A stretch of DNA of 64,000 nt from a virus (taxonomy: Duplodnaviria; Heunggongvirae; Uroviricota; Caudoviricetes), in the IMG/VR virus record IMGVR_UViG_2541047680_000004; one strand, written 5' to 3'. A program made the translations under genes and the position numbers. Position 1 is the first letter of the stretch, and each line of letters starts with the position of its first letter. Below, piece after piece: positions 16,982-64,000 of the stretch. The notes beneath the pieces were generated by a model. That model had not been told where the DNA came from. It saw only the letters and a list, made by a program, of their open reading frames with translations, and searched no databases.

Positions 16982-19900
16982 TTAGTTACGTTGAGTGTTT
17001 GGGTTGAGTGATCCGCCAGGGCGTTTCTCTTGAGCGATAGTCTCAAGCGCGATTGCTTTCATCCGTTGAGCGGCATTGTTCCATATGCTTTCTGTATCGC
17101 CGGATTCTGTCGTGCTACCGTCACTATGGACGTTGATCTCAATTGATACAGGAGAAAGAACATTTCCGCCTCCACTCATACCATCGGTACTGAGCGTTAC
17201 AGGGATTGTTCGGCCATCAGGCAATGGAACATACGCCTCATTCATAGAACCTTCCCCAAACAACGCTAATTGAGGCGAGTTAGCAATACCGCCTTTCTGG
17301 TATGCCCCGAGCGGGATCACGCCGTCTTTTCCGAATATTCCTCCATTTGCAAACTTCGGGATTGCAGGAATGCCTTTAGTTCCGTCAGCCACACTGCTGG
17401 TTGCGGTTTTAGCAGAGCTTGATGTCACGCTGTCGAAACCACCGCCAGCCCAAGCTGAAACAAGACCAGATGCAACCGTTGCTCCAAAACTCAACCACTT
17501 ATTACCAGAGCCGGAAGCATTAGCTCCAAGCATTGCAAACGCGGCAGACAGCGCGCCGGTAACAGAGCTGAGGTTCTGCATCGAGAAGATGGAGTCCTTC
17601 ACGGCTTTTGTCTCGGCATCTTTGGCTTCAGTGCTATCAAATAGCCCTGATACCCAGCTACCAATCGCATTTGTTGCAGTGCCAATTGCGCTGGTGGTCT
17701 GCTGTGTTGTTTGCCCCAATCCAGTTACCGAACTGGACGTCTCCTTCGTGGCTTCTCCTACCGACTTGTCGCCGTTAACAGTGTTGCCCATTCGTACCCC
17801 TTGATTGGCAACGGCGGAAGCAACCCCGGTCAGCAAATTACCACTCTGTGAACTACCAGCTGCGGTGGTTCCCATCCCCAACATGTTCATTAGAGGCAGC
17901 GTGATTTGCGACTTCACGACCATATTGGTGATATCTTTCAAAATGGACTGAGATAGGCTGGAGAAGCTCATCTTCCCGTTAATAACGAAATCAGTCAGGA
18001 CATCAGTTAAGCCACTAAACAAATCAGTCCAGGTGCTTTCGATCTGCTCTGCCAAGTTTTCGTATTCCAGTGCCAACTTCTGCGTCGCAGTCCCCGTCTC
18101 TTTAATAAGCGCGGTATTGCCAGCAGCAATCAGTTGATTGATTTTCTTTGTATAAAGCGCCACAACTTTAGGATCAGACGCCTTATCACGAAGTTCTATC
18201 AACGCTTTGAGATTGCGGTTGTAGGTGTCTTCGAAATCAGCAACTTTCTCTTCGCGAGACGGCGTATAGCCAGCACTAATAATGGAATCCGCCTCCGGTG
18301 CCCAAGTGGAGATCATCTGCTCAACATTGCGGCGATTAAACATCTCGCGATATTCAGGTGTCGCATTTTTGAGGTCTTCAAGACGTTTTTTCGCCTTGTC
18401 GATCATCTCTTGAGTGATGAACTCGTTAGGAACCGCATTAGCCAAATCTGTCAGCGATTTCGTTGTATCGCGAAGAGACTGATCAAACGATACCGTAGCC
18501 TTAGAGCTTTCACCCATTTGCCCCATAAGCTGATCGGCTTTGTCCAGAGCCTTCTGGTATCCGGCTGCCAGTTTCTGTTGCGCTGCCTGTTCCTTCTTGG
18601 CCGCACGCTGCGAGGCGTTAGCTGATCGTTGGGCTGCTTTCTCGGCAGCTGCTGCATCCTGTTCACGAGCTTTAGTTAGTGCAGCAATGGCTGCGGCACG
18701 CTCTTCATCGCTCATTTTCTCCAGAGAGCTGGCGCTGGATGCTTTCTGCAAATTAAGCTGCGTCTTGAGTTGTTTAGGCCCAATAATCGGCTTACCTTCG
18801 AAGTCCATCATCGGAGTGCCGTCAGGCAAAGTACGCTGATAAGTCGCAGAATCCATCTGGTTTCGCATATATTGCGCCAACGCCTTCTGAGCAGCTTTAT
18901 CAGTTGTACCTAACCCAAGAACAGTCCCCTGGTTTGACATTACGCCCTTACCAGTTTTGGCCGCGTTATCTCTCTCGAACTCTGCCTGAGTAAGTTCCTG
19001 AGCAACGGCTTCCAAATGCTCCTGATAACCACGAATACTGCCTTGCAGTTTCTGGATTTGCTCGGTATTGCCATCCTTTTTGGCTTTTTCAAGCTGATCA
19101 TTAAGAGTCGCGATTTGCTTCTCGGTCGCATTCTTACGAGAAGAAAGTGAATCAACCAGTTTTTGCGCAGGCTCCAGATAGCTTTTGTTTACCGTTTCAC
19201 GTAACGGTGCCAATAGCTTGTTCTTTTCGTCATCTGAAAGTGAACCGTCATCATTGATTTTCTGAATCTTATCCAGAGCCTCCTGCCGGGCTTTCACGAA
19301 TGTTGCCGCGAAAATCTGGTTTTCCTCTCGAATTTTCTCAATCTGAGATTCGGCAGCCTCTTTAGCCAAACGCTTTGCTACAGCGCCGTCACCAAGAGCT
19401 ATCGTGCCGGTTATCTTTTGATACTCTTCCTGATTTTTTTTCAGGCGTGCTTCGATGTCAGCCTTCGACTCTTTGTGAGTAATAACACCGGCAGAGTTAG
19501 ATACGTAATTAACGCCCTCACCATTTTTTAATGCTCGTTGATCAGCGAGAATCTGCTTTTCGAGCTTTTCTGCGCGATCGGCCATCTGTGCTCGTTTGGC
19601 CGCTGTCATCGCCTCTGGTATTTTCCTAATCTCGTCAACGACCTTTGAAGTTTCGCTGCGGAGCATGGTCATGTACGTGATTAGGCCAGCAACAGCTACA
19701 GTGGCAACTGTAAATGCTGCCCCTATAGGGTTTGCTGCAATGAACGCCGTTAATCCCGCAAAAGCGCCTTTAAGCCCCGTAATCGCCCCACGGATGGCGA
19801 AAATAAGAGAGGGGATCGGAGCCAGCCCCATACGTGCCGCACGATTGAATCGAGTTACTGCTGTAGCACCGAGATTAAATGGAGTCTGTATGGCGGTCGC

Positions 19901-37325: not shown

Positions 37326-37748
37326 ATGAAATACTCGCTTCTCCCTCTACTAACGTTACCAGTGTTGATGCTTACCGCGTGCCAATCACGCCCAATATCA
37401 ATCCATGACGCCAAACCAGCACCGCAGGCCAAAGTGTTCAAGTATCAAAGCGCAGCGCCAGCTACGTTGGTGGTAATGAGAGACACAGGTTTTGTAGGAG
37501 CTGGATGTGATGCTTCCATTTTCATCAACGGCGAAACTGTCGCAAAACTGGCTACAGGCGAAAAAGCGACTTTCCATTTAAATGCCGGAGAATTAATTGT
37601 GGGTGCATCTCTTGAAGGTGCAGGTTTATGTGCTCTAAACCCCGCTCGTCAAGAGCGAGAAACGACTCTGAAGAATGGAGACACAAAAGCGTTCAGGGTG
37701 TTCACCAGCAATTCTGGTGACATCGACATTCTGCCAACAACTCTGTGA
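37326..37748 (+). CDS. lipoprotein
   Basis: signal peptide MKYSLLPLLTLPVLMLTAC with lipobox LTAC; start set at MKYSL. Confidence 0.5.
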   Translation: MKYSLLPLLTLPVLMLTACQSRPISIHDAKPAPQAKVFKYQSAAPATLVVMRDTGFVGAGCDASIFINGETVAKLATGEKATFHLNAGELIVGASLEGAGLCALNPARQERETTLKNGDTKAFRVFTSNSGDIDILPTTL

Positions 37749-37752
37749 TGAC

Positions 37753-38277
37753 ATGACAACCAAAGATATTACCTACGGTATCCAAGCTGAACTCTGGCCG
37801 CGAGATTACACTAACGTTGAAAAACTACTGATGTTCTGGCGCAGAGAACAAATTCCTGTAAGGGTCACTCTCGAAGATGGCCAGGCGTTTTGCATGTACG
37901 TTTATGGCCTCATGCCATCTCGTAACAAAGTTGACCTTTGCCCAGCCCCTTTTGACAAAGAAAATCGTATAAGGCTCCCACTTGAACGCATTAGTACAAT
38001 TGAATCAGGTGTGGTTGACAGTATCGCTCACGATTTCAAAGGTCGACTAACAGTTCACCCTGATTATGTCGATAATCGGCCATCACGCCGCGATTTTTTT
38101 GCAATTTGCAACCAAGCCTACAAAGCAAACAAATCTATAAGGGTGTACATGGCGGATGGCCGTGAAATTGAGGGGGTGTCAGCAGGCGCAGATGCTTGTC
38201 AGGTTACACTACGTGTCGAGAACGGTAGAAAAATAGTTGTTTTGTTCGATTGGGTTGAACGAATTTTGCCTTTTTGA
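37753..38277 (+). CDS. hypothetical protein
   Basis: 174 aa from MTTKDITYG; no motif recognised. Confidence 0.45.
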   Translation: MTTKDITYGIQAELWPRDYTNVEKLLMFWRREQIPVRVTLEDGQAFCMYVYGLMPSRNKVDLCPAPFDKENRIRLPLERISTIESGVVDSIAHDFKGRLTVHPDYVDNRPSRRDFFAICNQAYKANKSIRVYMADGREIEGVSAGADACQVTLRVENGRKIVVLFDWVERILPF

Positions 38278-38871: not shown

Positions 38872-39522
38872 ATGGCTAACATTATCATTTCTAAAAAGTC
38901 CATCATTGAAGCTGCATCTATTGTATCCGACGAGCTGCGCGAAAAAGCAGATCTGGCAACTCAAACATATAACGAACATTATAAAAATGGTACGCACACT
39001 AAAGCAGACAAAGCAAATATGCAAGCTGCGACCACTAAACTTGCTTACTTCATCAACAACGTCGTAAACGCAGTAGAAGACGAAAAATTATGCTCTGTTT
39101 TCTACTATGCGATTAAAGCAAGCAAACAAGCGCCAGAAGTATTTTTCCGTGATGCAATGACTAATAGTTATTCTCTGGAAAAACTGGTTTATCTGGTTAA
39201 ATCAATTAAATCTGGTAAATGCGTTTATTCCGTCGCTGATATGTCTGGATCTCGTGTATTCGCTTTAATCGATATGATTAACGACGAGATCGACACGTTC
39301 ACTAATGGCGCTGTTTTCGATTTAATGAATGAAGCTAAAAAAGCGTGTGAAATTAAATTGGACGCTGGCTATACTCAAGCCAACCAGTTGATCAATCTTT
39401 GCGAACGTCTTGGACTTGTTGAAAAAGTCAAAGGAGCTGGGAGTGCGAAAGCTGGTACTCAGCAATATCGCTTTATTAAAAATGATTTCTACAATTATTT
39501 AGCTGATGCTTTCAAAGCGTAA
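38872..39522 (+). CDS. hypothetical protein (low-GC moron gene 1)
   Basis: 216-aa ORF in AT-rich segment with own promoter and terminators. Confidence 0.5.
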   Translation: MANIIISKKSIIEAASIVSDELREKADLATQTYNEHYKNGTHTKADKANMQAATTKLAYFINNVVNAVEDEKLCSVFYYAIKASKQAPEVFFRDAMTNSYSLEKLVYLVKSIKSGKCVYSVADMSGSRVFALIDMINDEIDTFTNGAVFDLMNEAKKACEIKLDAGYTQANQLINLCERLGLVEKVKGAGSAKAGTQQYRFIKNDFYNYLADAFKA

Positions 39523-39533
39523 TTAATGGAATC

Positions 39534-39554
39534 AAGCGCCCACTATGGGCGCTT
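39534..39554 (+). other. hairpin (copy 1 of GCGCCC-ACTAT-GGGCGC) between moron genes
   Basis: identical stem-loop recurs at 40030-40054 where it carries a T-run; here only TTT follows. Confidence 0.45.
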
Positions 39555-39570
39555 TAAAGGAGCTTTAAAG

Positions 39571-39793: not shown

Positions 39794-40024
39794 ATGTTTG
39801 TTCTTATCGCTGGCGTTAACGTCCATAATGAATATTATGTTAATCGCATCGCTGGGATCGCTGGTTACGCTGGGCGCGCAGTCGAGCTTATAGATGAAAC
39901 GACGCGCAAAATTGACTTATTGAGCGACCAGGAGCGAAAAAAAGCAGACGTGAACGACGCTGATATATTTTTAATGTTAAAAGCGTTTGTAGAAATGGGA
40001 TTTGAAATCAGTCTACATAAATAA
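39794..40024 (+). CDS. hypothetical small protein (moron gene 3)
   Basis: 76-aa ORF with RBS-like AAGGAG upstream. Confidence 0.4.
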   Translation: MFVLIAGVNVHNEYYVNRIAGIAGYAGRAVELIDETTRKIDLLSDQERKKADVNDADIFLMLKAFVEMGFEISLHK

Positions 40025-40029
40025 AATCG

Positions 40030-40054
40030 AGCGCCCACTATGGGCGCTTTTTTC
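40030..40054 (+). terminator. rho-independent terminator
   Basis: stem GCGCCC/GGGCGC, loop ACTAT, then TTTTTT. Confidence 0.65.
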
Positions 40055-40101: not shown

Positions 40102-40472
40102 TTGTCTTTAACTCACTCCAACAACATAAAAATAAGCGCCAAAATAACGCCATAGACGCGCTTTTATATCCTTACCAGTACATACCCATTACTTAACACA
40201 TTAACGCGCTTAAAACGCGTTATATTGCGCTATAGAGTATGGTTAATCATTGGCTTTTAGTCTTGCTTTATGATCCGCGTTTATTTGTCGGCGCGGATCG
40301 GCATTTTGTTTTGTTCCGTATCCGCTCGCGTATTATGTGCGCGTGATTTTTCACATAATCACACCACTTAATCACGTATGTGATTATGCTACGAAAGAAA
40401 TCTGGATGTCTCAGGCGACGAAAGTCATCATAATTTTCCCCGCTCACCTGTCCGACAACCGCTGGTTGGATT

Positions 40473-40480: not shown

Positions 40481-40594
40481 TTCCCGATGTTTTTTCTACA
40501 CAAAGGCGAATGCAGCCGTTTCCCGAAAAAATCCTGGCCGTTCCCCGTCGGCTCATGAATACGTTCCTCGCCGTTTCTGAAAATTTCCCTGCGG
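40481..40594. repeat. iteron cluster 1 (direct repeats of GCCGTTTCCCGAAAA-like units)
   Basis: units at about 40514, 40536, 40570 with partial copies at 40488, 40561, 40584; 22-33 bp phasing; ORF-free convergent intergenic region. Confidence 0.6.
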
Positions 40595-40596
40595 CA

Positions 40597-40604
40597 GCTG
40601 GTGG
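40597..40604 (+). other. Chi sequence GCTGGTGG
   Basis: exact octamer. Confidence 0.5.
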
Positions 40605-40640: not shown

Positions 40641-41123
40641 TTACACGCCATCAAGGATGTGGATGCGGTTGCTTGCGTATACATTCAGCATAAAGTTAGC
40701 GCAAAACAGTTTCCATGTATCAACGCCAGCGGTATACGTAATGTTTTTGCATTTAATCGCATTGTTGGCGATCCGCATCCCCTGCGATACTGCTTCATCG
40801 TCGGAAAATTTGAACGACGATTGAGTTTTAATCCAGACAGAAATCTGCGTAGCAAACTCAATCAGCTTAGACTGGCAGAATCGCCCGGAGCGTACCGGGA
40901 AGACGAACGTTCCGAATCCAGAATTAACCACATATGCTTTCTCAAATACCCTCGAGTAACGACGATTGCCAATGATGTCGCGTGCAATAATGCATTTTTC
41001 TTGTGCTGACAGTTCTACCGTCTCATTGTCGCGCCATGCACCAAGTACTCGTTTTTCAATGTCAGAGAACGTTACAGCGATATTGCCATGTGCGGGTGCG
41101 TTTACAGTAGCGATAAAATTCAT
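40641..41123 (-). CDS. hypothetical protein
   Basis: 160-aa ORF preceded by family-1 operator and GATAAT-like element. Confidence 0.45.
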   Translation of the reverse strand: MNFIATVNAPAHGNIAVTFSDIEKRVLGAWRDNETVELSAQEKCIIARDIIGNRRYSRVFEKAYVVNSGFGTFVFPVRSGRFCQSKLIEFATQISVWIKTQSSFKFSDDEAVSQGMRIANNAIKCKNITYTAGVDTWKLFCANFMLNVYASNRIHILDGV

Positions 41124-41207: not shown

Positions 41208-41280
41208 TGCGGTAGCCGGACGGGAACAGGTGGGTTTGTCGGTTGCCTGGAGGTAAGAGGTTGGTGTTTTTAGCCTGCGG
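41208..41280. repeat. about 70-bp G/T-rich repeat, copy A
   Basis: roughly 75 percent identical to 44385-44455 (shared GGTAGCC..AGGTGGGT..TCGGT.GCCTG..AAGAGGTTGGT). Confidence 0.5.
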
Positions 41281-41473
41281 GAAACAGGATGGTCATTTAA
41301 GGCCACCAATGCTGATGGCCTTAATAATTATCGACCGATTACGCTAAGGATCTTTTCCTCAACTGATTTGTTGTTGCGACTAAACTGCCTTGCGTATCTG
41401 ATGACAGAAGAGGCGTTTTGCTTTCTGACCATCTCGGCTCTTTCCTTCAGGCGTTTCTTGAAATCGCCCATAT

Positions 41474-42487: not shown

Positions 42488-42799
42488 TCAGGCTATTGCC
42501 ATCACTGATGCTCTCTGAATTTCTTGCTGGGCCACGCGGTTAACTTCCATCAAGGCCAGTTCGAGCTGATGTTCCGGCCACATTCTTTGAAACGCCATCC
42601 AGCCTTTTCCACGCTGGCGACGAACATTCATTACATAACGAGTAAAGGTGTTTTTATCGAAAGACACCGCTGTTTCACGGAACAGACGAATAGAGGTTCC
42701 ATTGGCAACGATGTCCAGCAAAGTTAATTGAGCAACCAGCGCAGGCTTCTCTTTTCTCTTCTGGTCTTTGTCCAGACCAAGAACCAATGATTTTTTCAT
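42488..42799 (-). CDS. hypothetical protein
   Basis: start set at MKKSLVLGL; basic. Confidence 0.45.
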   Translation of the reverse strand: MKKSLVLGLDKDQKRKEKPALVAQLTLLDIVANGTSIRLFRETAVSFDKNTFTRYVMNVRRQRGKGWMAFQRMWPEHQLELALMEVNRVAQQEIQRASVMAIA

Positions 42800-42810
42800 C
42801 ACAACTCCGT

Positions 42811-42834
42811 AAACAACTTGTTTTCTCAATGGCG
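42811..42834. promoter_or_regulatory. family-1 operator element
   Basis: AAACAACTTGTTTTCTCAATGGCG about 12 nt upstream of the start codon. Confidence 0.5.
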
Positions 42835-43294: not shown

Positions 43295-43329
43295 TAAACA
43301 ACATGTTTTCTTGATGGTGTTATTATCGC
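43295..43329. promoter_or_regulatory. family-1 operator/promoter element
   Basis: TAAACAACATGTTTTCTTGATGGTGTTATTATCGC. Confidence 0.5.
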
Positions 43330-43444
43330 AATAACGCACAGGCGAAAAAGGATTTTATTCCGGTGAATATGGTTTTGGCAGTGAGTTTTCAGGTTCAGTA
43401 CCGAGTATACTTTTTACATTATTCTGATTTAGTGGCCGAAGGTG

Positions 43445-43452
43445 GCTGGTGG
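43445..43452 (+). other. Chi sequence GCTGGTGG
   Basis: exact octamer about 200 bp from iteron cluster 2. Confidence 0.45.
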
Positions 43453-43644
43453 GCAGAATAATCCTCTCCCCGAAAACCTACTGAAATCGATTGTGACCCG
43501 TTGGCTGTCTGGCACAATTACGCTGTAGCTGGGCATTCAGAGGGAATCCAGCGGTAAGCAAGTCCGCCTACGTGAGCGCCTCTCTTCTTCCCGCACATTA
43601 CAGGTGGGTAGCCGCAACTCTCCCTCTCGCTATACCGGTACGCC

Positions 43645-43777
43645 GCCGTTCCTGAACCGGCATCGAGCCTTTTCCCGAAATCCACACAGGCAACTCGACC
43701 GTTTCCCTGAAAACCTCCAGCCGTTCCCCGAAGGCAACCCAGCCTTTTCTGTAGCGGGATGCAACCTTTTCCCTGTA
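43645..43777. repeat. iteron cluster 2 (six direct repeats, about 22-bp phasing)
   Basis: units at 43645, 43666, 43697, 43719, 43741, 43763 (e.g. GACCGTTTCCCTGAAAA); extra copy near 43470; same family as cluster 1. Confidence 0.65.
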
Positions 43778-44100
43778 TGGACCGAAGGCTGACCGTAGGG
43801 GTTTTACGGGGGATAAAATCAGGAGTTGAATAAATACGAAAAAGGAGGCGACACCCCTCCTTCCCTCCCCACTTATACATACCTGGCTTCTTCGCTATAC
43901 ATGTTGTGTTTTCTTCGTGTTTTATCTGTCTCAACCTCTCTATAGGCGTTAATGCTCACTCCTTCCAGAACCTTCTATACGGCGACTATTTCTGTTGGTG
44001 AATTGGGTGTGTTGTTCTCTCTGTCGGTGTATGTGGTTTCGTTCGTTTTGCGGTGGTTCTTCTATGGGGTGTTCTCGTCGTTTTGGTGATTGTTCTTCTC

Positions 44101-44460
44101 CGTGTATGGAGTAATGGCAGGTGGGCGATTCCTTTCGTTATTGTGTTTGAGTTGTTTGTCTGGAGTGTGTGAAAGGCTTTTGTAGTTATTCGTGTATTGG
44201 GTAATGGCGTTTCCCGTGATTGTTATGTTTCGTGTCTTTTGGGATTGAGAGAAACCTTGCGGTTACAGGCTTCGTTGGGGTTTCAGTGATTCTGGTGTTT
44301 CTTCGCTGTTTGGGTAATGGCGTGTCGTGGGTATCGCGCGTATGAATGTTTTCGGATTGCCTGTGAAAGTTAGGTTGGTTGTCCGGTAGCCTGGGGAGAA
44401 GAGGTGGGTCTTTTCGGTAGCCTGCCATAAAGAGGTTGGTTGTTTTGGGTAATGGTATAT
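44101..44460. repeat. direct repeats in GT-rich ORF-free region
   Basis: CGTGTAT(T)GG(A/G)GTAATGGC at 44101, 44191, 44304 and degenerate copy at 44437; strong G+T excess on plus strand across 43960-44700. Confidence 0.55.
44385..44455. repeat. about 70-bp G/T-rich repeat, copy B
   Basis: pairs with 41208-41280. Confidence 0.5.
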
Positions 44461-44701
44461 GTGTTATTTAGTTGTTTTGTTATGCCTGAAAATAAGTTGT
44501 TTATATGGTTGTGTAACGCAACGGGAGCGATTTTGAGCGTGTGTTTTTGTTGGTAGTGTGTTGAGTCGTCTGTGGTGAAAATTGGACGCTGTGGCGCTAT
44601 CTGCTGCGTAGAATTACGGGTATAAGAAGTGATGTGTGATAACGTCAATTTTTTAGACCAAATCGGGAGAAAGCGTTGATGTTTCGTTGATCTGTTATTT
44701 A

Positions 44702-44728
44702 GTTGTTTTCTTATTGGTATAAACAACC
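44702..44728. promoter_or_regulatory. family-1 half-site element
   Basis: GTTGTTTTCTTATTGGTATAAACAACC; would drive minus-strand transcription into the GT-rich region. Confidence 0.35.
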
Positions 44729-44845
44729 ATAACCTATTGATATTTAATGATGTGATTGCTGGTATGGGAGGGGAGTAGTGGCGATCAACGGGTTCTTATA
44801 GAAAAGAATCAAATTGTGACCGCCATTATCAATAAGTTGCAACCG

Positions 44846-45527: not shown

Positions 45528-45713
45528 TTAGATGAGATGGTCTAATTCATCATCTATCATGGCTTTGACGCTGGAGTCATTCACTCCATATTTATTTATG
45601 AGCTGTTTCAGCTCTGGCGAAAACTGAAGGTAGATATCGTGAGCGTTTTTCACTGTAGGTTCAACGCCACGCATTTCAAGCGCCTTTAGTAGATATGAGT
45701 CTTCTTTAAGCAT
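45528..45713 (-). CDS. hypothetical small protein
   Basis: 61-aa ORF. Confidence 0.3.
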   Translation of the reverse strand: MLKEDSYLLKALEMRGVEPTVKNAHDIYLQFSPELKQLINKYGVNDSSVKAMIDDELDHLI

Positions 45714-45749: not shown

Positions 45750-46049
45750 TTACCATTGCCAGCACTCAAGCCCTTCAACGACCGGTGCGCCACAATCAAA
45801 ATGTACAGAGTCAAAGCCTACATCAAGTACTTTCTGAATGTTCGCAATCGCGCCCTCGGATATACCATATCGACGCAACTCATCTATCCAGTCATCGTCC
45901 TGTAACCCGGCGTGGACAATGCAACCGTACTCAATTTGTGAAACCCAATCCAGCTCATTGCTTGCGATCATGAATCGGCGAGCATCTTCCTCTGATGTAT
46001 GAGATGAGCTGATCAATGCCACCTGGTAGGCTTGGGTAATGTTCAACAT
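45750..46049 (-). CDS. hypothetical protein
   Basis: ATG start at 46049 with RBS GGAGTGG; family-1 operator pair immediately upstream. Confidence 0.4.
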   Translation of the reverse strand: MLNITQAYQVALISSSHTSEEDARRFMIASNELDWVSQIEYGCIVHAGLQDDDWIDELRRYGISEGAIANIQKVLDVGFDSVHFDCGAPVVEGLECWQW

Positions 46050-46062
46050 TTCAACCACTCCA

Positions 46063-46210: not shown

Positions 46211-48244
46211 TTACTTAACCTGGTGGCCAGGTTTAGCACCAGCATCCGGGCTTAACAGGAAGATATCTTTCCCGCCGGGGCCAGCAGCCATCACCATGCC
46301 TTCAGAGATACCGAAGCGCATTTTACGCGGAGCCAGGTTAGCCACCATAATTGTGTGACGACCAATCAGTGCCTGTGGGTCTGGATAAGCAGAACGGATG
46401 CCTGAGAAGACATTACGCTTTTCACCACCGAGATCCAGCGTCAGGCGCAGCAGCTTGTCAGAACCTTCAACAAACTCTGCGTTTTCAATCAGCGCCACGC
46501 GCAGGTCAACTTTAGCGAAGTCGTCAAAGGTGATGGTTTCCTGAATCGGGTCGTCTGCCAGTGGGCCAGTTACCGGTGCGGCTGTGGCTTTCACTTCTTC
46601 TTTGGATGCTTCCACCAGTGCTTCCACCTGTTTCATATCGATACGGTTATACAATGCCTTGAACGGATTCACTTTATGGCCCAGCAGCGGTTGCTGGATA
46701 CCATCCCAGGTCAGTTCTGTATTCAGGAATGCTTCTGCACGTTCAGTCAGTTTCGGCAGTACCGGTTTCAAGTAAGTCATCAGCACGCGGAACAGGTTAA
46801 TGCCCATAGAGCAAATCGCCTGCAGATCGGCATCGCGTCCTTCCTGCTTCGCCACCACCCACGGAGCCTGTTCATCAACATAGCGGTTAGCCAGGTCAGC
46901 CAGTGCCATGATTTCACGGATAGCTTTACCAAATTCGCGGCTTTCCCATGCTTCGCCAATCACTTCAGCGGCATCAGTAAAGGTTTTGTACAGTTGCGGG
47001 TCAGCCAGTTCGCTTGCCAGCACGCCGTCAAAACGCTTGTTGATAAAGCCTGCATTACGGGAGGCCAGGTTAACCACTTTGTTCACGATATCGGCATTCA
47101 CGCGCTGAACGAAATCCTCCAGGTTGAGATCGATATCATCAATGCGCGAAGAGAGTTTCGCAGTGTAGTAGTAACGCAGGCTGTCGGCGTCAAAATGATT
47201 CAGCCAGGTGCTGGCTTTAATAAAGGTACCGCGAGACTTAGACATCTTCGCGCCGTTCACCGTCACATAGCCATGAACAAACAGGTTGGTCGGCTTGCGG
47301 AAGTTGCTGCCTTCCAGCATTGCTGGCCAGAACAGACTGTGGAAGTAAACAATATCTTTACCGATGAAGTGGTACAGCTCGGCGGTGGAGTCTTTCTTCC
47401 AGTATTCATCGAAGCTTACGCTGTCGCCGCGCTTGTCGCACAGATTCTTGAAAGAACCCATATAGCCAATCGGCGCATCTAGCCAGACGTAGAAATATTT
47501 ACCCGGCGCGTTCGGAATTTCAAAACCGAAATACGGCGCGTCGCGGGAGATATCCCACTGTTGCAGGCCAGATTCAAACCACTCCTGCATTTTATTTGCC
47601 ACCTGCTCCTGCAACGCACCGCTGCGGGTCCATGCCTGCAACATTTCGCTGAAAGAGGGCAGATCAAAGAAGAAGTGTTCAGAATCACGCATTACCGGCG
47701 TAGCGCCAGAAACCACCGATTTCGGCTCGATCAATTCAGTCGGGCTGTAGGTCGCGCCGCAGACTTCGCAGTTATCGCCGTATTGATCCGGGGATTTACA
47801 TTTCGGGCAGGTGCCTTTCACAAAACGATCCGGCAGGAACATGCCTTTTTCCGGGTCGTACAACTGAGAGATAGTGCGATTTTTAATAAAACCGTTCTCT
47901 TTCAGGCGAGTATAGATAAGCTCAGACAACTGACGGTTCTCTTCGCTGTGCGTCGAGTGATAGTTGTCATAGCTGATGTTAAAGCCTGCGAAATCAGTCT
48001 GGTGTTCCTGACTCATTTCGCCAATCATCTGCTCCGGTGTGATACCAAGTTGCTGTGCTTTCAGCATGATCGGCGTACCGTGGGCATCGTCGGCACAGAT
48101 GAAATTAACCTCGTGGCCGCGCATTCGCTGGTAACGAACCCAGACATCAGCCTGGATGTGCTCCAGCATATGGCCGAGGTGGATTGAGCCGTTAGCGTAC
48201 GGCAGCGCGCACGTCACCAGAATTTTCTTCGCGACTTGGGTCAT
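46211..48244 (-). CDS. metG: methionine--tRNA ligase
   Basis: 677 aa from [25 protein letters not shown] (HIGH-type) with KMSKS; C-terminal tRNA-binding domain; near-identical to enterobacterial MetG as I recall it. Confidence 0.97.
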
Positions 48245-48401
48245 AGTAGGCATTACTTCTTTGTAGTGAAAAGGGGCTTGATAGTAACAAAATGGCCTTA
48301 TGTCTGCCATGTGATAACAGCATTTCTCATAAATGATTAAATGTCGCAGCTGGAGTACACTACAAGGCGACAATTGCGCAAATTAAAATAAAGGAGACGG
48401 G

Positions 48402-49502
48402 ATGAGCGAGTCCAAATCGCCGGATGCCCTGAGAGCAATGGTAGCCGGTACGCTGGCTAATTTTCAGCACCCAACCCTGAAACACAACCTGACTACGCTT
48501 AAAGCGTTACACCATGTTGCGTTGATGGATGACACACTGCATGTCGAACTAATCATGCCTTTCGTGTGGAATAAGCCTTTTGAAGACCTGAAAGAGCAAT
48601 GTAGTGGTGATCTGCTCCGTATCACTGGCGCAAAGGCTATTGACTGGAAGCTGTCGTACAACATTGCCACGCTTAAGCGCGTCAAAAACCAACCAGGCAT
48701 TAATGGTGTTAAGAATATTATCGCCGTAAGCTCAGGCAAGGGCGGTGTAGGCAAATCGTCCACAGCAGTAAACTTGGCACTGGCTTTGGCTGCTGAAGGT
48801 GCGAAAGTTGGTATTTTGGATGCCGATATCTATGGTCCATCAATTCCAACCATGCTGGGCGCGGAAAACCAACGTCCAACCTCACCGGACGGTACTCACA
48901 TGGCACCTATCATGTCTCATGGCCTGGCAACCAACTCTATTGGTTATCTGGTCACCGACGACAATGCAATGGTGTGGCGTGGACCGATGGCCAGCAAGGC
49001 GCTGATGCAGATGTTGCAGGAAACACTGTGGCCTGATCTGGACTATCTCGTTCTCGATATGCCGCCGGGCACTGGTGATATTCAATTGACGCTGGCGCAG
49101 AACATTCCTGTAACTGGTGCGGTTGTGGTAACTACGCCGCAAGACATCGCGCTGATCGATGCGAAGAAAGGCATTGTGATGTTCGAAAAAGTCGAAGTGC
49201 CGGTACTAGGTATCGTCGAAAACATGAGTGTGCATATTTGCAGTAACTGCGGTCATCACGAGCCAATTTTTGGCACCGGTGGCGCACAGAAACTGGCCGA
49301 GAAATACAACACGCAGTTGTTAGGCCAAATGCCACTTCATATCTCTCTTCGTGAAGATCTGGATAACGGAACACCAACCGTTATTAGTCGTCCAGATAGC
49401 GAATTTACGGCTATTTATCGTGACCTCGCAGATCGCGTTGCTGCCCAAATGTATTGGCAAGGTGAAGTAATACCTGGCGAAATCGCATTCCGCGCAGTGT
49501 GA
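48402..49502 (+). CDS. apbC: Fe-S cluster carrier ATPase Mrp/ApbC
   Basis: P-loop SSGKGGVGKS, CxxC motif (CSNCGH); divergent from metG as in E. coli. Confidence 0.95.
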   Translation: MSESKSPDALRAMVAGTLANFQHPTLKHNLTTLKALHHVALMDDTLHVELIMPFVWNKPFEDLKEQCSGDLLRITGAKAIDWKLSYNIATLKRVKNQPGINGVKNIIAVSSGKGGVGKSSTAVNLALALAAEGAKVGILDADIYGPSIPTMLGAENQRPTSPDGTHMAPIMSHGLATNSIGYLVTDDNAMVWRGPMASKALMQMLQETLWPDLDYLVLDMPPGTGDIQLTLAQNIPVTGAVVVTTPQDIALIDAKKGIVMFEKVEVPVLGIVENMSVHICSNCGHHEPIFGTGGAQKLAEKYNTQLLGQMPLHISLREDLDNGTPTVISRPDSEFTAIYRDLADRVAAQMYWQGEVIPGEIAFRAV

Positions 49503-49539: not shown

Positions 49540-49929
49540 CTACATCACAGGACAATCATCAAACTCGCCACTTCTTGCGTCGTTGATAATGTGAGTGATC
49601 ACACCAAACACGGCATTGCTGCCCGTGCATCCATCATCATCCTTTGGCAATGCTTCCTTCTTACCAGTTCTTAAATCCTCCAGATGCTGACGTGGATACT
49701 TCCGGTATCTTTTTACGCGATATTCCCCATCCAGAGCACATACAAGAAGAGATCCATCAACAGGAGTCAGTGAGGAATCGACCACCAGCAATGCACCCTG
49801 CAATATTCCCTCACGATGATGACTATCAGCCGCCCTCATGAAGTAGGTCGCTGAAGGATGTCTAATTATCTGCTGATCAAGAGAAATACGGCTCTCAGCA
49901 TAATCCGCCGCAGGAGAAGGGAAGCCCAT
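49540..49929 (-). CDS. UmuD'-like S24 peptidase-fold protein (HumD-like)
   Basis: begins MGFPSPAADY, aligning with UmuD from the RecA cleavage site onward; Ser (ADSH) and Lys (RVKR) positions conserved; in-frame TAA 15 nt upstream of ATG; RBS AAGAGG. Confidence 0.85.
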   Translation of the reverse strand: MGFPSPAADYAESRISLDQQIIRHPSATYFMRAADSHHREGILQGALLVVDSSLTPVDGSLLVCALDGEYRVKRYRKYPRQHLEDLRTGKKEALPKDDDGCTGSNAVFGVITHIINDARSGEFDDCPVM

Positions 49930-60130: not shown

Positions 60131-60153
60131 ATAGGTAAACACTTACTTACTAT
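60131..60153. promoter_or_regulatory. family-2 dyad-like motif
   Basis: ATAGGTAAACACTTACTTACTAT. Confidence 0.3.
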
Positions 60154-60740
60154 TTGTTATAAACAAAACCAATATCTTTCTTGTGAGGCATATCTGCTGC
60201 TGAAAAAGCTGCGATCTTCGCGAGTCGATCACATATTTCATTTTCACGATGCCCGGCGTGACCTTTAACCCACTTCCAGCGAACATTATGTCGACTTGCG
60301 GCCTCATCCAGACGCTTCCACAGATCAACATTCTTTACCGGTTTTTTGTCAGAAGTCATCCATCCATTGCGTTTCCACCATTTCATCCACTGTGTCATGC
60401 CGTTTTTCAGATACTGGCTATCAGAGTGCAAAATAACGTTGCATGGATATTTCAAACGCTCCAGCCCGATAAGTGCCCCCATCATCTCCATGCGGTTATT
60501 GGTGGTGCTATGAAAACCATCTGAGAACTCGCGTTCCTCACCACGATACTGGAGAACGATACCGTAACCGCCCGGGCCACCCGGATTTTTAAGGCAAGAG
60601 CCATCACTAAAGATTTTCACGGTTTTAAGCTGGGGATTGAACTCTACGACAGGCGTTGTGGGATTGGTGCGGGGAGAATTTTTGTTTTTGTCTTTTTTGC
60701 GAGTTTTTGCTTGCGATCGGGCTGGTGTCTTCGTCGTCAT
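60150..60740 (-). CDS. ribonuclease H (RNase HI family) with basic N-terminal extension
   Basis: SDGSC, NNRME, HSDSQY, VKGHAGH, NE..D motifs; start set at MTTKT with RBS AGGAG. Confidence 0.8.
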
Positions 60741-60839
60741 ATAAACTCCTGAATCAAGCGCCGCGCCGATTTTTCCTCGCGCGTGCGCACACGCGTGCGT
60801 GTTAATAATTATTAAAATAAACAAATTACTTCCCAGAAC

Positions 60840-63784: not shown

Positions 63785-64000
63785 CTGATGAATCCCCTAA
63801 TGATTTTGGTAAAAATCATTAAGTTAAGGTAGATACACATCTTGTCATATGATCAAATGGTTTCGCGAAAAATCAATAATCAGACAACAAGATGTGCGAA
63901 CTCGATATTTTACACGACTCTCTTTACCAATTCTGCCCCGAATTACACTTAAAACGACTCAACAGCTTAACGTTGGCTTGCCACGCCTTACTTGACTGTA
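63785..64000 (+). mobile_element. IS10 (IS4 family) end, partial, continues beyond window
   Basis: sequence from CTGATGAATCCCCTAATGATTTTGGTAAAAATCATTAAG matches the IS10 terminal sequence as I recall it. Confidence 0.85.
63892..64000 (+). CDS. IS10 transposase, N-terminal fragment (partial at window edge)
   Basis: translation MCELDILHDSLYQFCPELHLKRLNSLTLACHALLD. Confidence 0.85.
   Translation, partial: MCELDILHDSLYQFCPELHLKRLNSLTLACHALLDC

Follow-up and report, generated by a model that had tools for sequence, protein, structure and literature searches.

A gene-free, G/T-skewed module of SSU5/pHCM2-type phage-plasmids, probably a structure-free RNA or single-strand DNA site of lytic growth

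Introduction

Of the large extrachromosomal elements found in clinical E. coli, Klebsiella, Enterobacter and Salmonella, few are as common as SSU5/pHCM2/pKpn-type phage-plasmids. The stretch of DNA analysed here (64,000 nucleotides, hereafter the window) represents an E. coli phage-plasmid of the SSU5/pHCM2 type that shares 97% identity with phage Cyrano/pLF82. At 43960-44700 it holds 0.75 kb that an initial annotation, made from the letters alone, had singled out as free of ORFs, rich in G and T on one strand and carrying direct repeats, and had proposed to encode a long A/C-rich RNA or to be a replication or recombination structure. What is such a region for? Full-text searches turned up no description of the element in the literature, and it appears to be undescribed so far.

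Here, we delimit the module to which this region belongs, establish that it is non-coding, and weigh the explanations for its composition, repeats and conservation. We conclude that the element probably works in lytic growth, either as an RNA free of structure or as a single-strand DNA site.

The region is the core of a conserved gene-free module

The region lies within a longer gap between genes:

43305-44845, no strand assigned: gene-free conserved module, with no coding sequence called by PGAP in near-identical or related plasmids
43960-44720, plus strand: G/T-rich core, G+T 71%; an RNA of minus sense would be A 40, C 31, U 16 and G 13%

The coordinates 43960-44700 hold for the core of the module and not for its full extent, which is 43305-44845, or 1.5 kb, a gene-free length that exceeds every other annotation gap within the window. 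On the left the module is flanked by a small leftward gene (42954-43283/43304), and on the right, from 44846 onward, by an accessory-gene hotspot that carries resistance and defence genes. The flanking genes all run leftward; a rightward gene entering the region occurs in SSU5-type lineages only.

The element is present in 838 plasmid records, and the module is homologous over its full length in elements of E. coli, Salmonella, Enterobacter, Citrobacter and Klebsiella. The initial annotation had made its proposals depend on conservation of the region and repeats in related genomes, and this conservation proved very strong, exceeding that of the neighbouring genes. Mean majority identity of the G/T core is 0.83, and blocks of at least 90% majority identity alternate with variable spacers among 34 representatives, the pattern of a binding-site array. 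Distant pCAV relatives (pCAV1015-111) have the same architecture and skew at their syntenic site, as do, more weakly, Acinetobacter relatives, one of which, with a helicase 42% identical, has the G+T maximum of its 25-kb locus in a gene-free gap. The element is absent from Yersinia pMT1, a non-phage derivative that is still maintained as a plasmid, indicating that plasmid maintenance does not need it.

One explanation is that the module is a passive boundary of the accessory hotspot, kept similar by frequent recombination among phage-plasmids, with the skew a mutational by-product and its only role to stop read-through. In keeping with this, each lineage has its own set of genes to the right of 44845, a 450-bp piece (44384-44832) moves with DUF262 and type I restriction genes to large Klebsiella plasmids, a 290-nt insertion inside the element is tolerated in one Salmonella lineage, and base fluxes are near equilibrium. 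We nevertheless regard this explanation as improbable. Conservation is blocky and not in uniform tracts, and architecture and skew survive in pCAV and Acinetobacter despite largely turned-over sequence, a persistence for which recombinational homogenisation cannot account. The best explanation sees in the G/T-rich stretch the main part of a non-coding unit in its own right, one that belongs to the conserved SSU5-type phage-plasmid backbone.

The region is non-coding

The description of the region as ORF-free stands in substance: ORFs can be called mechanically (minus strand, 118 and 80 aa; plus strand, at most 45 aa), but the region is non-coding by substitution, indel and ORF-conservation tests. 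Substitutions lack codon periodicity (p=0.44-0.87, versus ~0 for a neighbouring control gene), indels in the element are mostly of 1-2 nt, and the lengths and sequences of the ORFs are wholly unlike between lineages. The minus-strand ORFs, which had been attributed to stop-codon depletion, are by-products of composition, with neither codon periodicity nor conservation. NCBI PGAP annotates nothing at 43305-44845 in near-identical plasmids, nor in most records; other annotators called CYRAN_103/104 and SSU5_108/109 here. These annotated ORFs, and a TAATG inside every repeat, are what can be said for a coding function, whether as low-complexity minus-strand proteins (118/80 aa) or as small hydrophobic plus-strand peptides from the ATG in GTAATGGC. 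With no third-position excess of substitutions, a dominance of 1- and 2-nt indels, ORFs that are not conserved between lineages and PGAP silent in most records, this function is scarcely credible.

Strand composition is a unique extreme and outlives sequence turnover

The strong G+T strand bias seen at first reading was borne out. Over 43960-44700 the plus strand is A 16.2, C 12.8, G 31.3 and T 39.7%, that is, 71.0% G+T, the maximum of the window. Across all 741-nt segments of the 64 kb, G+T averages 0.499 (sd 0.030); the highest value, 0.721, belongs to the segment starting at 43978 and is a unique extreme at ~7 sd. Across the stretch, GC skew ranges from +0.41 to +0.55 and AT skew from -0.24 to -0.64, and each of 37 non-redundant homologues has the G+T skew, at 63-72%. 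An RNA of minus sense would have a C/G ratio of 2.1-4.8 in 78-nt windows from 44820 down to 44100, and of 1.5 at 44040.

Polarised substitution spectra revealed per-site rates of C>T and A>G on the plus strand that are 1.4- to 5.6-fold above those of the complementary changes in three of four clades; the asymmetry is absent in the SSU5 clade, and counts are small. Base fluxes are close to equilibrium, and the mutation asymmetry fits mutation bias and selection equally. What argues for a strand-specific, i.e. single-strand, function is that the skew outlives sequence turnover, being kept in all lineages, in pCAV and in Acinetobacter.

At the scale of the whole element, the window is not collinear with the plasmid record compared, and gene orientation confounds the whole-plasmid skew profile.

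The module carries four families of direct repeats

Repeats and other conserved elements are distributed over the module as follows:

44092-44118, plus strand: repeat copy 1, GTTCTTCTCCGTGTATGGAGTAATGGC, 27 nt, among the two longest conserved blocks of the core
44186-44214, plus strand: repeat copy 2, TTATTCGTGTATTGGGTAATGGCGTTTCC
44299-44323, plus strand: repeat copy 3, TTCTTCGCTGTTTGGGTAATGGCGT
44441-44456, plus strand: repeat copy 4, TGTTTTGGGTAATGGT, with the motif core G-R-G-T-A-A-T-G-G-C
44386-44446, plus strand: two tandem 31-nt repeats, GTAGCCTG-N5-A-N-GAGGT-N-GGT, highly conserved
43645-43790, plus strand: six iteron-like repeats (CA)GCC(G/T)TT(T)CCC, all of the same sense, spacing 21-32 bp
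44638-44692, no strand assigned: three CGTTGA(Y) boxes, read from the sequence, flanking TTTTTAGACCAAATC
44780-44832, no strand assigned: boundary element GGCGATCAACG...TCTTATAGAAA...TGTGACCGCCA, an 8-bp inverted repeat with a 33-nt centre
43838-43870, minus strand: polypurine (minus)/polypyrimidine (plus) tract with a hairpin, from a terminator scan; terminator-like, with a U-run, in this lineage

Where at least three direct-repeat copies at 90-135 bp spacing had been noted, we found four, conserved and in the same orientation. The shared motif, GRGTAATGG, occurs on the plus strand as GAGTAATGG at 44109 and as GGGTAATGG at 44199, 44312 and 44447 (spacing 90, 113 and 135 bp); it has six matches in the window against 0.7 expected, a count reached in 0 of 100 shuffles. 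A longer 28-nt repeat unit, TTCTCCGTGTATGGAGTAATGGCAGGTG, is present in three copies of 71-100% identity. All lineages keep four to six copies of GRGTAATGGC per element in the same sense, with up to six repeat copies in SSU5-type lineages. In repeat copy 1, majority identity among 34 representatives is 0.9 or higher when one lapse is allowed, and the CTCCGTGTATG of this copy is still recognisable in the Acinetobacter relative.

The module contains four direct-repeat families. Two of them, the iteron-like and the 31-nt repeats, are each found at two loci separated by 3.2 kb, in equal relative order and with ~700 bp between them. At the second locus the iteron-like cluster lies at 40513-40600 and the 31-nt repeat forms a triple copy at 41212-41299. 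The iteron-like repeats are conserved, have variable spacers and differ from the RepA iterons of the plasmid replicon. We rejected the idea that the region arose by decay of a paralogue of the gene that holds the matching place at the other repeat locus, as tblastn gave no similarity. A search for tandem repeats by TRF returned none.

The CGTTGA(Y) boxes comprise one inverted (AACGTCAA) and two direct copies, 13 bp start to start, and their region has conserved blocks at 44639-44667 and 44673-44714, with only an invariant stem and no covariation. The boundary element is likewise invariant and hence without covariation; its anchoring pattern is present in 67 IMG/VR contigs, and pCAV has a related hairpin around CTTATAGAAA. 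At the left edge, the 43838-43870 hairpin is kept mainly by G-U and A-U pairs (RNAalifold -5.8 kcal/mol, no double compensatory change), and a polypyrimidine tract is found in Acinetobacter too. A conserved intrinsic terminator at 43838-43865 was rejected: the hairpin is weak, is good in some lineages only and lacks compensatory changes.

Read as RNA, the repeats could be a decoy for the FljA-like protein of the phage (37675-38277), the A/C-RNA repeats GCCAUUACCCAAUAC mimicking the fliC 5'UTR. FljA represses post-transcriptionally by binding the leader of the fliC mRNA, and the 37675-38277 protein has a Flag1_repress domain (E=2.5e-84) and a weak Sm/Hfq-like match. The fliC 5'UTR, which we read directly, has ACCCAAUAC in E. 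coli and CCCAAUAAC in Salmonella, and the 9-mer ACCCAAUAC is common to the fliC leader and one repeat copy. However, the chance expectation for this 9-mer is an estimated ~0.3, CCCAAUA occurs in only one or two copies per element, and the conserved core GTAATGGC is missing from the fliC leader. Nor do element and gene travel together, as the Acinetobacter relative has the element without a detectable FljA-like gene and pMT1 has the reverse; no definition of the FljA binding site was found in the accessible literature. With the fliC 9-mer outside the conserved motif core and the co-occurrence failing, we rejected the decoy, which is very improbable.

A plasmid origin is excluded and a lytic DNA site is possible

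In the form of a plasmid replication origin, the replication structure initially proposed is excluded, a P1/RepFIB-type replicon being located elsewhere. The iteron-like direct repeats and other arrays do recall an origin, and they share with P1/RepFIB iteron origins the same sense and ~22-bp spacing, but the element has no rep gene and the module no DnaA box. The family's true replicon has different iterons: it comprises a DnaA box, a GATC cluster, five TATGCTGYCAGCGGT iterons, repA and at least 14 further iterons, and the Acinetobacter group uses a Rep_3 replicon with iterons of its own. In the window, parA lies ~43 kb off, and pMT1 is stably maintained without the element. We rejected a plasmid oriV or partition site, and a plasmid-prophage origin, copy-control locus or partition site is highly unlikely.

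The main alternative, only slightly less probable than the reading favoured below, is an oriLyt-type region, a DNA site acting in cis in lytic replication or recombination. There the repeats would bind phage replication proteins and the skewed spacer would be unwound, displaced or covered by an RNA-DNA hybrid. It might be a transcription-primed origin of the T4 oriF/oriG or ColE1 kind, with the polypurine tract and a phage RNase H shaping the primer, or else a G/T single strand favoured by a recombinase; the second repeat cluster, 3.2 kb off, would then play the part that crr has in P4. Such a site would be in keeping with as much as 1.5 kb of gene-free backbone, conserved above the neighbouring genes, and with four direct-repeat families, the iteron-like ones at a spacing of about two turns and two of the families at two loci. 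The element is silent in the lysogen, is absent from pMT1, which replicates as a plasmid, and is kept in lineages with differing plasmid replicons. The hybrid-processing enzymes of R-loop origins are also at hand, the phage encoding RNase H (E=1e-44) and an SF2 helicase related to XPB, RecG and UvsW, and related records carry a DnaB-like helicase, primase, Pol III alpha, ligase and an SbcCD-like pair. G + T enrichment is a known footprint of a strand that is often single-stranded, and three of the four clades have the plus-strand excess of C>T and A>G. With a GC skew of +0.45, transcripts running rightward would be strongly prone to form R-loops.

Against a DNA site, the promoter-like elements recognised all point leftward, toward a C-rich RNA, which would not favour R-loops, and selection accounts equally well for the mutation asymmetry, of which the SSU5 clade shows none. 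No initiator gene adjoins the module (neighbouring ORFs lack a Rep domain), which has no DnaA boxes and no significant 13-mer-type unwinding element; an oriC-like 13-mer at 44689 was rejected, being at chance level and unconserved. Like T4 oriF/oriG, ColE1 RNA II and P4 ori with crr, the element is non-coding and combines a promoter-like motif with a long spacer and with repeats at two separate loci, but it differs from them in having no adjacent initiator, no AT-rich unwinding element and an RNA that would be C-rich and not G-rich. We know of no origin with a 0.75-kb keto-skewed spacer. Exact Chi (GCTGGTGG) is absent from 43960-44700, where one single-mismatch match occurs, and a cluster of Chi recombination hotspots was rejected on that ground.

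A non-coding module that is better conserved than genes, skewed across bacterial orders and dispensable for plasmid life is a prime candidate for lytic control or a lytic origin. As a DNA site it would be the family's lytic origin or recombination entry site, and as an RNA a rare long non-coding phage RNA selected for absence of structure. Either answer would make the induction and spread of such phage-plasmids experimentally tractable.

A leftward lytic-phase RNA is the favoured reading

Two motifs on the minus strand bear on transcription:

44690-44722, minus strand: right-edge copy of a promoter/leader family, TTATACCAATAAGAAAACAACTAAATAACAGAT on the minus strand, within a 42-nt conserved block
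44459-44483, minus strand: internal variant leader/operator copy, ATAACAAAACAACTAAATAACACAT on the minus strand, a 92% direct repeat of 44690-44714

The operator-like half-site noted at 44702-44728, oriented leftward, is real, a variant copy of a family that precedes many leftward genes: AAGAAAACAAC at no more than one mismatch was observed 14 times against 2.2 expected. The left half of the right-edge copy fits the family, and the right half of the palindrome is replaced; in this lineage the motif is without the GATAAT element and half palindrome of gene-proximal copies. In pCAV1015-111 it has all the parts of the family motif, and in Acinetobacter it can still be recognised (88% over 25 nt). 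The skew starts immediately past this motif. No sigma-70 promoter consensus exceeds shuffle expectation on either strand of the module.

The proposed long A/C-rich RNA did not appear as a transcript of the lysogen, strand-specific RNA-seq giving zero to near-zero reads in five conditions. Log2(FPKM+5) for the A/C-rich strand was 2.32 to 4.3 over these conditions, with FPKM ~0 in LB, and the signal fell from 57 normalised reads in upstream CYRAN_102 to the floor value in CYRAN_103, inside the element. The A/C-rich RNA, if any, is not a lysogenic transcript.

Covariation analysis, suggested at the outset, found no conserved secondary structure on either strand. The minus-sense RNA has an MFE of -139.6 kcal/mol for 893 nt (-0.156 kcal/mol per nt, z=-1.3), another single-sequence fold gave a z-score of +1.0, and minus-sense consensus folds lie between 0 and -3 kcal/mol per 160 nt. 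With 34 representatives, sliding RNAalifold yielded only invariant long-loop stems and no covarying helices. Rfam gave no match at the gathering threshold; the only one with E<5 (21.6 bits, E=0.73, against a cut-off of 40.2) lies outside the core. We rejected a known or structured RNA family, there being neither an Rfam match nor covariation.

Tentatively, we favour a leftward transcription unit of the lytic phase whose unfoldable A/C-only RNA would be a Rho-loading or protein-binding RNA. Transcription would start at or near the promoter/leader-family element at 44690-44722, of which 44459-44483 is a second copy, and would span ~0.75 kb to the polypurine hairpin at 43838-43870. The product would consist almost only of A and C and hence be unable to base-pair, and it would be C-rich, G-poor (C/G 2 to 5 over ~800 nt) and untranslated. 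Unpaired, untranslated RNA that is C-rich and G-poor is the textbook substrate for Rho loading, and a substrate for other single-strand RNA binders. The four to six conserved GCCAUUACYC blocks, with other invariant blocks, are probable sites for a protein that would use or modulate the RNA. Off in the lysogen and acting in lytic development, the unit would be a barrier or timer dependent on Rho, or else a sink for protein, with the variable accessory hotspot to its right and the conserved small early genes to its left.

A leftward RNA is favoured by the direction of all neighbouring genes and supported by the leftward motif at the right edge together with the same-strand hairpin and U-run at the left edge in this lineage. 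It is weakened by an A/C strand at or near floor in the five lysogen conditions, by the lack of a sigma-70 consensus in the module and the incomplete right-edge motif here, and by a left-edge hairpin that is a good terminator in some lineages only; it also leaves the iteron-like and 31-nt repeat clusters at two loci unexplained.

Some features of a rut site are present in the predicted RNA, namely C-rich, G-poor sequence over at least 70-80 nt, low structure and no coding signal. The rut regions of the lambda tR1 type are likewise untranslated, C-rich, G-poor and of little structure, and as with phage rut the element sits inside an array of co-oriented early genes, with upstream read-through lost in the lysogen. 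In contrast to rut, it is ~10 times longer and far more conserved, with a repeated 10-nt motif and a promoter-like element of its own, and its Rho role is putative; rut function alone does not need 80-90% sequence conservation, which weakens this reading of the element.

As in protein sponges, multiple copies of a short motif stand in a single-stranded context. With CsrB/RsmZ (which bind CsrA) and CrcZ (Hfq/Crc) the element would share several copies of a short motif in weakly constrained single-stranded RNA. Unlike these sponge RNAs, it is much longer, has no Rfam match, gives no abundant lysogen transcript, and has their motifs GGA and AAnAAnAA absent or not enriched. Neither A-rich nor CA motifs of the Hfq/Crc type are enriched, with ARN x3-5 and AAnAAnAA at shuffle expectation, and the lack of enrichment of such sponge motifs weakens the case for a leftward RNA. 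It is unlikely, though conceivable, that the element is a new phage regulatory RNA common to SSU5/pHCM2/pKpn-type phage-plasmids and their Acinetobacter relatives: a structure-free A/C RNA of ~0.8 kb, made early in lytic growth, that would be a sink for Rho or another host single-strand RNA binder through rut-like segments and GCCAUUACYC, and so act in anti-termination or host takeover. The prophage anti-sRNA AgvB, which is C/A-rich, is a precedent for a C/A-rich regulatory RNA.

A gene-free module with a G/T-rich core

The 64-kb window is an E. coli phage-plasmid of the SSU5/pHCM2 type. At 97% identity, the region analyzed here and its flanks match Escherichia phage Cyrano (pLF82) and many E. 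coli plasmids; identity is 68–79% for Salmonella phage SSU5 and for relatives in Enterobacter, Citrobacter and Klebsiella. The initial annotation described 43960–44700 as an ORF-free, G+T-biased stretch with direct repeats and an operator-like half-site. These observations hold, but the limits do not, as the stretch is only the core of a larger module (43305–44845) in which the NCBI pipeline annotates no gene, here or in related plasmids. The plus strand of the core is 31.3% G and 39.7% T, with skew peaks of +0.55 (GC) and −0.64 (AT); same-length windows elsewhere have a G+T fraction of 0.499 ± 0.030, and the window-wide maximum of 0.721 starts at 43978. The direct repeats, said to lie 90–135 bp apart, are four GRGTAATGG copies (44109, 44199, 44312 and 44447) in one orientation, spaced 90, 113 and 135 bp (6 matches in the window against 0.7 expected), and a 28-nt extended unit around the motif is present in three copies. 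The half-site at the right edge of the core, 44690–44722, belongs to an over-represented promoter/leader motif family (14 matches against 2.2 expected).

Features of the module, left to right
43645–43790, six same-sense repeats GCC(G/T)TT(T)CCC, spaced 21–32 bp
43838–43870, polypyrimidine tract and hairpin
Right of the polypyrimidine tract, G/T-rich core with GRGTAATGGC copies
44370–44726, minus strand, CYRAN_103, a spurious ORF inside the module
44386–44446, two tandem 31-nt repeats
44459–44483 and 44690–44722, two copies of a variant promoter/leader motif
Near the right end, three CGTTGA boxes
44780–44832, invariant inverted-repeat element, the rightmost part

A second locus carries a GCCGTT(T)CCC cluster (40513–40600) and a triple 31-nt GTAGCC...GAGGTGGGT repeat (41212–41299), some 700 bp from each other and in an order that matches the module; unlike in the module, a real gene (40641–41123) lies between them. 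To the right of 44780–44832 gene content differs in every lineage, and we considered whether the module is a passive recombination boundary, a reading that we regard as unlikely. In this window the small genes just beyond it include two on the minus strand (45528–45713 and 45750–46058), with a weak, sub-threshold match (E=0.006) to the T7 gp5.9 RecBCD inhibitor and a DUF5983 protein, and then comes cargo:

46211–48373, methionyl-tRNA synthetase
48402–49502, ApbC/MinD-like ATPase
49540–49929, UmuD-like S24 peptidase

The module is conserved and non-coding

Majority identity is 0.78–0.93 per 50 nt across most of 43979–44830, with three bins dipping to 0.68–0.73, while the best-conserved flanking gene reaches 0.7–0.8; the G/T region is thus more conserved than its protein-coding neighbors. 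Conservation is blocky: among 34 representatives, stretches of 10–42 nt, in which majority identity is 90% or more with a single lapse permitted, alternate with variable spacers. Carriers comprise 838 plasmid records of Klebsiella, Escherichia, Enterobacter, Salmonella, Citrobacter and Cronobacter, 12 phage records and 67 IMG/VR contigs. Any doubt that region and repeats persist in relatives is dispelled by the non-redundant versions, all 37 of which keep the skew (G+T 63–72%) and four to six motif copies.

Partial and interrupted copies also occur. The right 450 bp (44384–44832) is found on Klebsiella plasmids (L003, L004 and L009) that are large IncFIB/IncHI1B plasmids, not phage-plasmids. 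It is accompanied by a DUF262 gene, to which L003 adds a type I restriction-modification operon; on L004, from K. oxytoca, the right fragment occurs alone. In Salmonella pN16S089-2 (L011), an insertion of ~290 nt between the equivalents of 44420 and 44446 holds an ORF on the plus strand whose product would be a short and strongly hydrophobic peptide (MYLFFALWLCVISILLLFCL...), and the element therefore tolerates splitting there.

Codon-position analysis of 26 non-redundant homologues revealed no third-position excess in the G/T region (entropy 0.55/0.52/0.51, p=0.44) or in the two long minus-strand ORFs, in contrast to the neighboring control gene 42488–42829 (0.52/0.59/1.09, p about 0), and indels in the region are mostly 1 or 2 nt. 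Because TAATG is present in every repeat we tested short plus-strand ORFs, and those starting in repeats differ wholly in length and sequence among lineages. Nor does the region show any similarity to the gene that occupies the corresponding place in the second repeat locus. The G/T region is not coding, and a protein product is the least probable of the readings weighed here.

Distant relatives keep the arrangement to varying degrees. The relative pCAV1015-111, whose helicase is 71% identical, holds module parts in the same order in its syntenic gap (18117–19620): iteron-like repeats, a G/T-rich 0.8 kb with altered G(T/G)GATGGC motifs, CGTTGA boxes with a full leftward promoter/leader copy, and a closing hairpin around CTTATAGAAA; for the right part, homology has statistical support from nhmmer (E=7.6e-19) and from blastn. 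An Acinetobacter relative (helicase 42% identical) has a 2.2-kb gene-free gap that contains the G+T maximum of its 25-kb locus (GC skew +0.45) and retains short collinear matches, including CTCCGTGTATG and TTATTTAGTTRTTTTCT. At the right end of the syntenic gap in Acinetobacter locus L095, adjoining ArdA, a 22-codon hydrophobic ORF (19497–19565, plus strand; MLTALIVLGAIGLIYLMLKAMK) with a perfect TATAAT and strong terminator is possibly a type I toxin-like mini-gene. The Cupriavidus gap is T-rich and weaker, and the Aeromonas relative has no such skewed gap. The region was lost, beside IS1541 copies, from Yersinia pestis pMT1, a plasmid that derives from this phage family.

The module belongs to the phage backbone

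The initial annotation also proposed a replication structure, which in its plasmid-origin version is ruled out. As a related record shows, the family replicon lies elsewhere and is of P1/RepFIB type (DnaA box, GATC cluster, five TATGCTGYCAGCGGT iterons, repA and no fewer than 14 further iterons), the Acinetobacter group has its own Rep_3 replicon, and the module contains no DnaA box, significant unwinding 13-mer or Chi cluster. Moreover, pMT1 replicates without it. On all these grounds the module is part of the phage rather than the plasmid backbone; a role as plasmid origin or partition site is highly improbable. The related record is NZ_CP107145.1, in which this P1/RepFIB-type replicon (111.6 kb to 1.7 kb, end of L012 and start of L013; outside the window) is unannotated; its GATC cluster has five sites, and its repA ORF of ~360 codons is absent from the gene table.

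A candidate leftward non-coding unit

The strand asymmetry survives sequence turnover, which points to a function exerted through a single strand. RNA of A and C cannot pair, and C-rich, G-poor, unstructured, untranslated RNA is the defining Rho substrate and suits single-strand RNA-binding proteins. Along some 800 nt, the C/G ratio of the minus-sense RNA would lie between 2 and 5. Rfam gave no match for the region, neither strand folds better than shuffles, and consensus folding of 34 representatives gave near-zero energy in the minus sense and weak helices in the plus sense, with no covarying helix on either strand. The left-edge hairpin is a good terminator in this lineage but only weakly conserved as a structure.

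The skew begins directly past a leftward promoter/leader-family member and ends ~100 nt before a same-strand hairpin, and nearly all surrounding genes run leftward, on the minus strand. Given these bounds and RNA properties, we tentatively favor a leftward non-coding unit that is silent during lysogeny and would serve lytic development. Its RNA may act as a Rho-dependent barrier or timer, or as a sink for proteins that would bind at the repeated GCCAUUACYC blocks; that the unit is transcribed, involves Rho and binds protein is inferred. In published strand-specific RNA-seq of a Cyrano lysogen, CYRAN_103 sits at the floor value in LB and only just exceeds it in the four remaining conditions, while the gene just upstream is expressed. 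The long A/C-rich RNA of the initial annotation is therefore not a lysogenic transcript on the minus strand in these five conditions.

The main rival, only slightly less probable than this tentative reading, is that the module acts in cis as a DNA site of lytic replication or recombination. In its favor, the module is a large (1.5-kb) conserved gene-free backbone stretch dispensable for plasmid life, with several repeat families present at two loci 3.2 kb apart; the phage encodes an RNase H and a UvsW/XPB-like helicase; and G/T enrichment also marks strands that spend much time unpaired, with per-site C>T and A>G rates exceeding their complements in three clades. However, there is no adjacent initiator or unwinding element, and the recognizable promoter-like elements are wrongly oriented for a G-rich R-loop.

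Among known systems, the rut region would be closest in working to the module, which exceeds it tenfold in length, is much better conserved and has a repeated motif. Protein-sponge RNAs resemble it in layout but not in motif or, in the lysogen, abundance, and transcription-primed or two-site origins resemble it in context but have defining parts that it lacks. The literature searched makes no mention of the element. We class it as a putative non-coding control or cis element, of interest because it is conserved and oddly designed and because its carriers are clinically widespread.

A promoter/leader family and an FljA-like protein

The promoter/leader family, [GCCTTTT]-N9-GATAAT-N8-10-AAGAAAACAAnTTGTTT, in which AAGAAAACAAnTTGTTT is an 11–13 bp palindrome, precedes at least nine leftward genes including parA, 15–30 nt upstream of start codons. 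It lacks a −35 consensus and so may depend on an activator or operator system specific to the phage.

Promoter/leader anchors, minus strand: 1155, 41161, 42828, 43313, 46080, 54855, 57814, 58528, 59257

An FljA-like protein is encoded at 37675–38277 (plus strand; Flag1_repress, E=2.5e-84). The fliC 5'UTR of Salmonella and Citrobacter (CCCAATAACATCAAGTTGTAATTGATAAGGAA) resembles the phage leaders (GATAATAACACCATCAAGAAAACATGTTGTTTAAGGA), so that the protein might repress translation not only of host flagellin but also of phage genes. That the module is a decoy for this RNA-binding protein is very unlikely.

Elsewhere in the window, a 34-nt repeat (39522–39555 and 40017–40050, plus strand, 88% identical) including a terminator hairpin GCGCCCACTATGGGCGC ends two successive rightward genes and is followed by a short G/T-rich patch (40216–40352). 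The phage RNase H (60150–60824, minus strand) has a ~67-residue N-terminal extension ahead of its catalytic domain. RNA-OUT, the antisense RNA of IS10/Tn10, matches full-length at 63830–63899 (minus strand, 98.8 bits), placing an IS10 end at the window's right edge.
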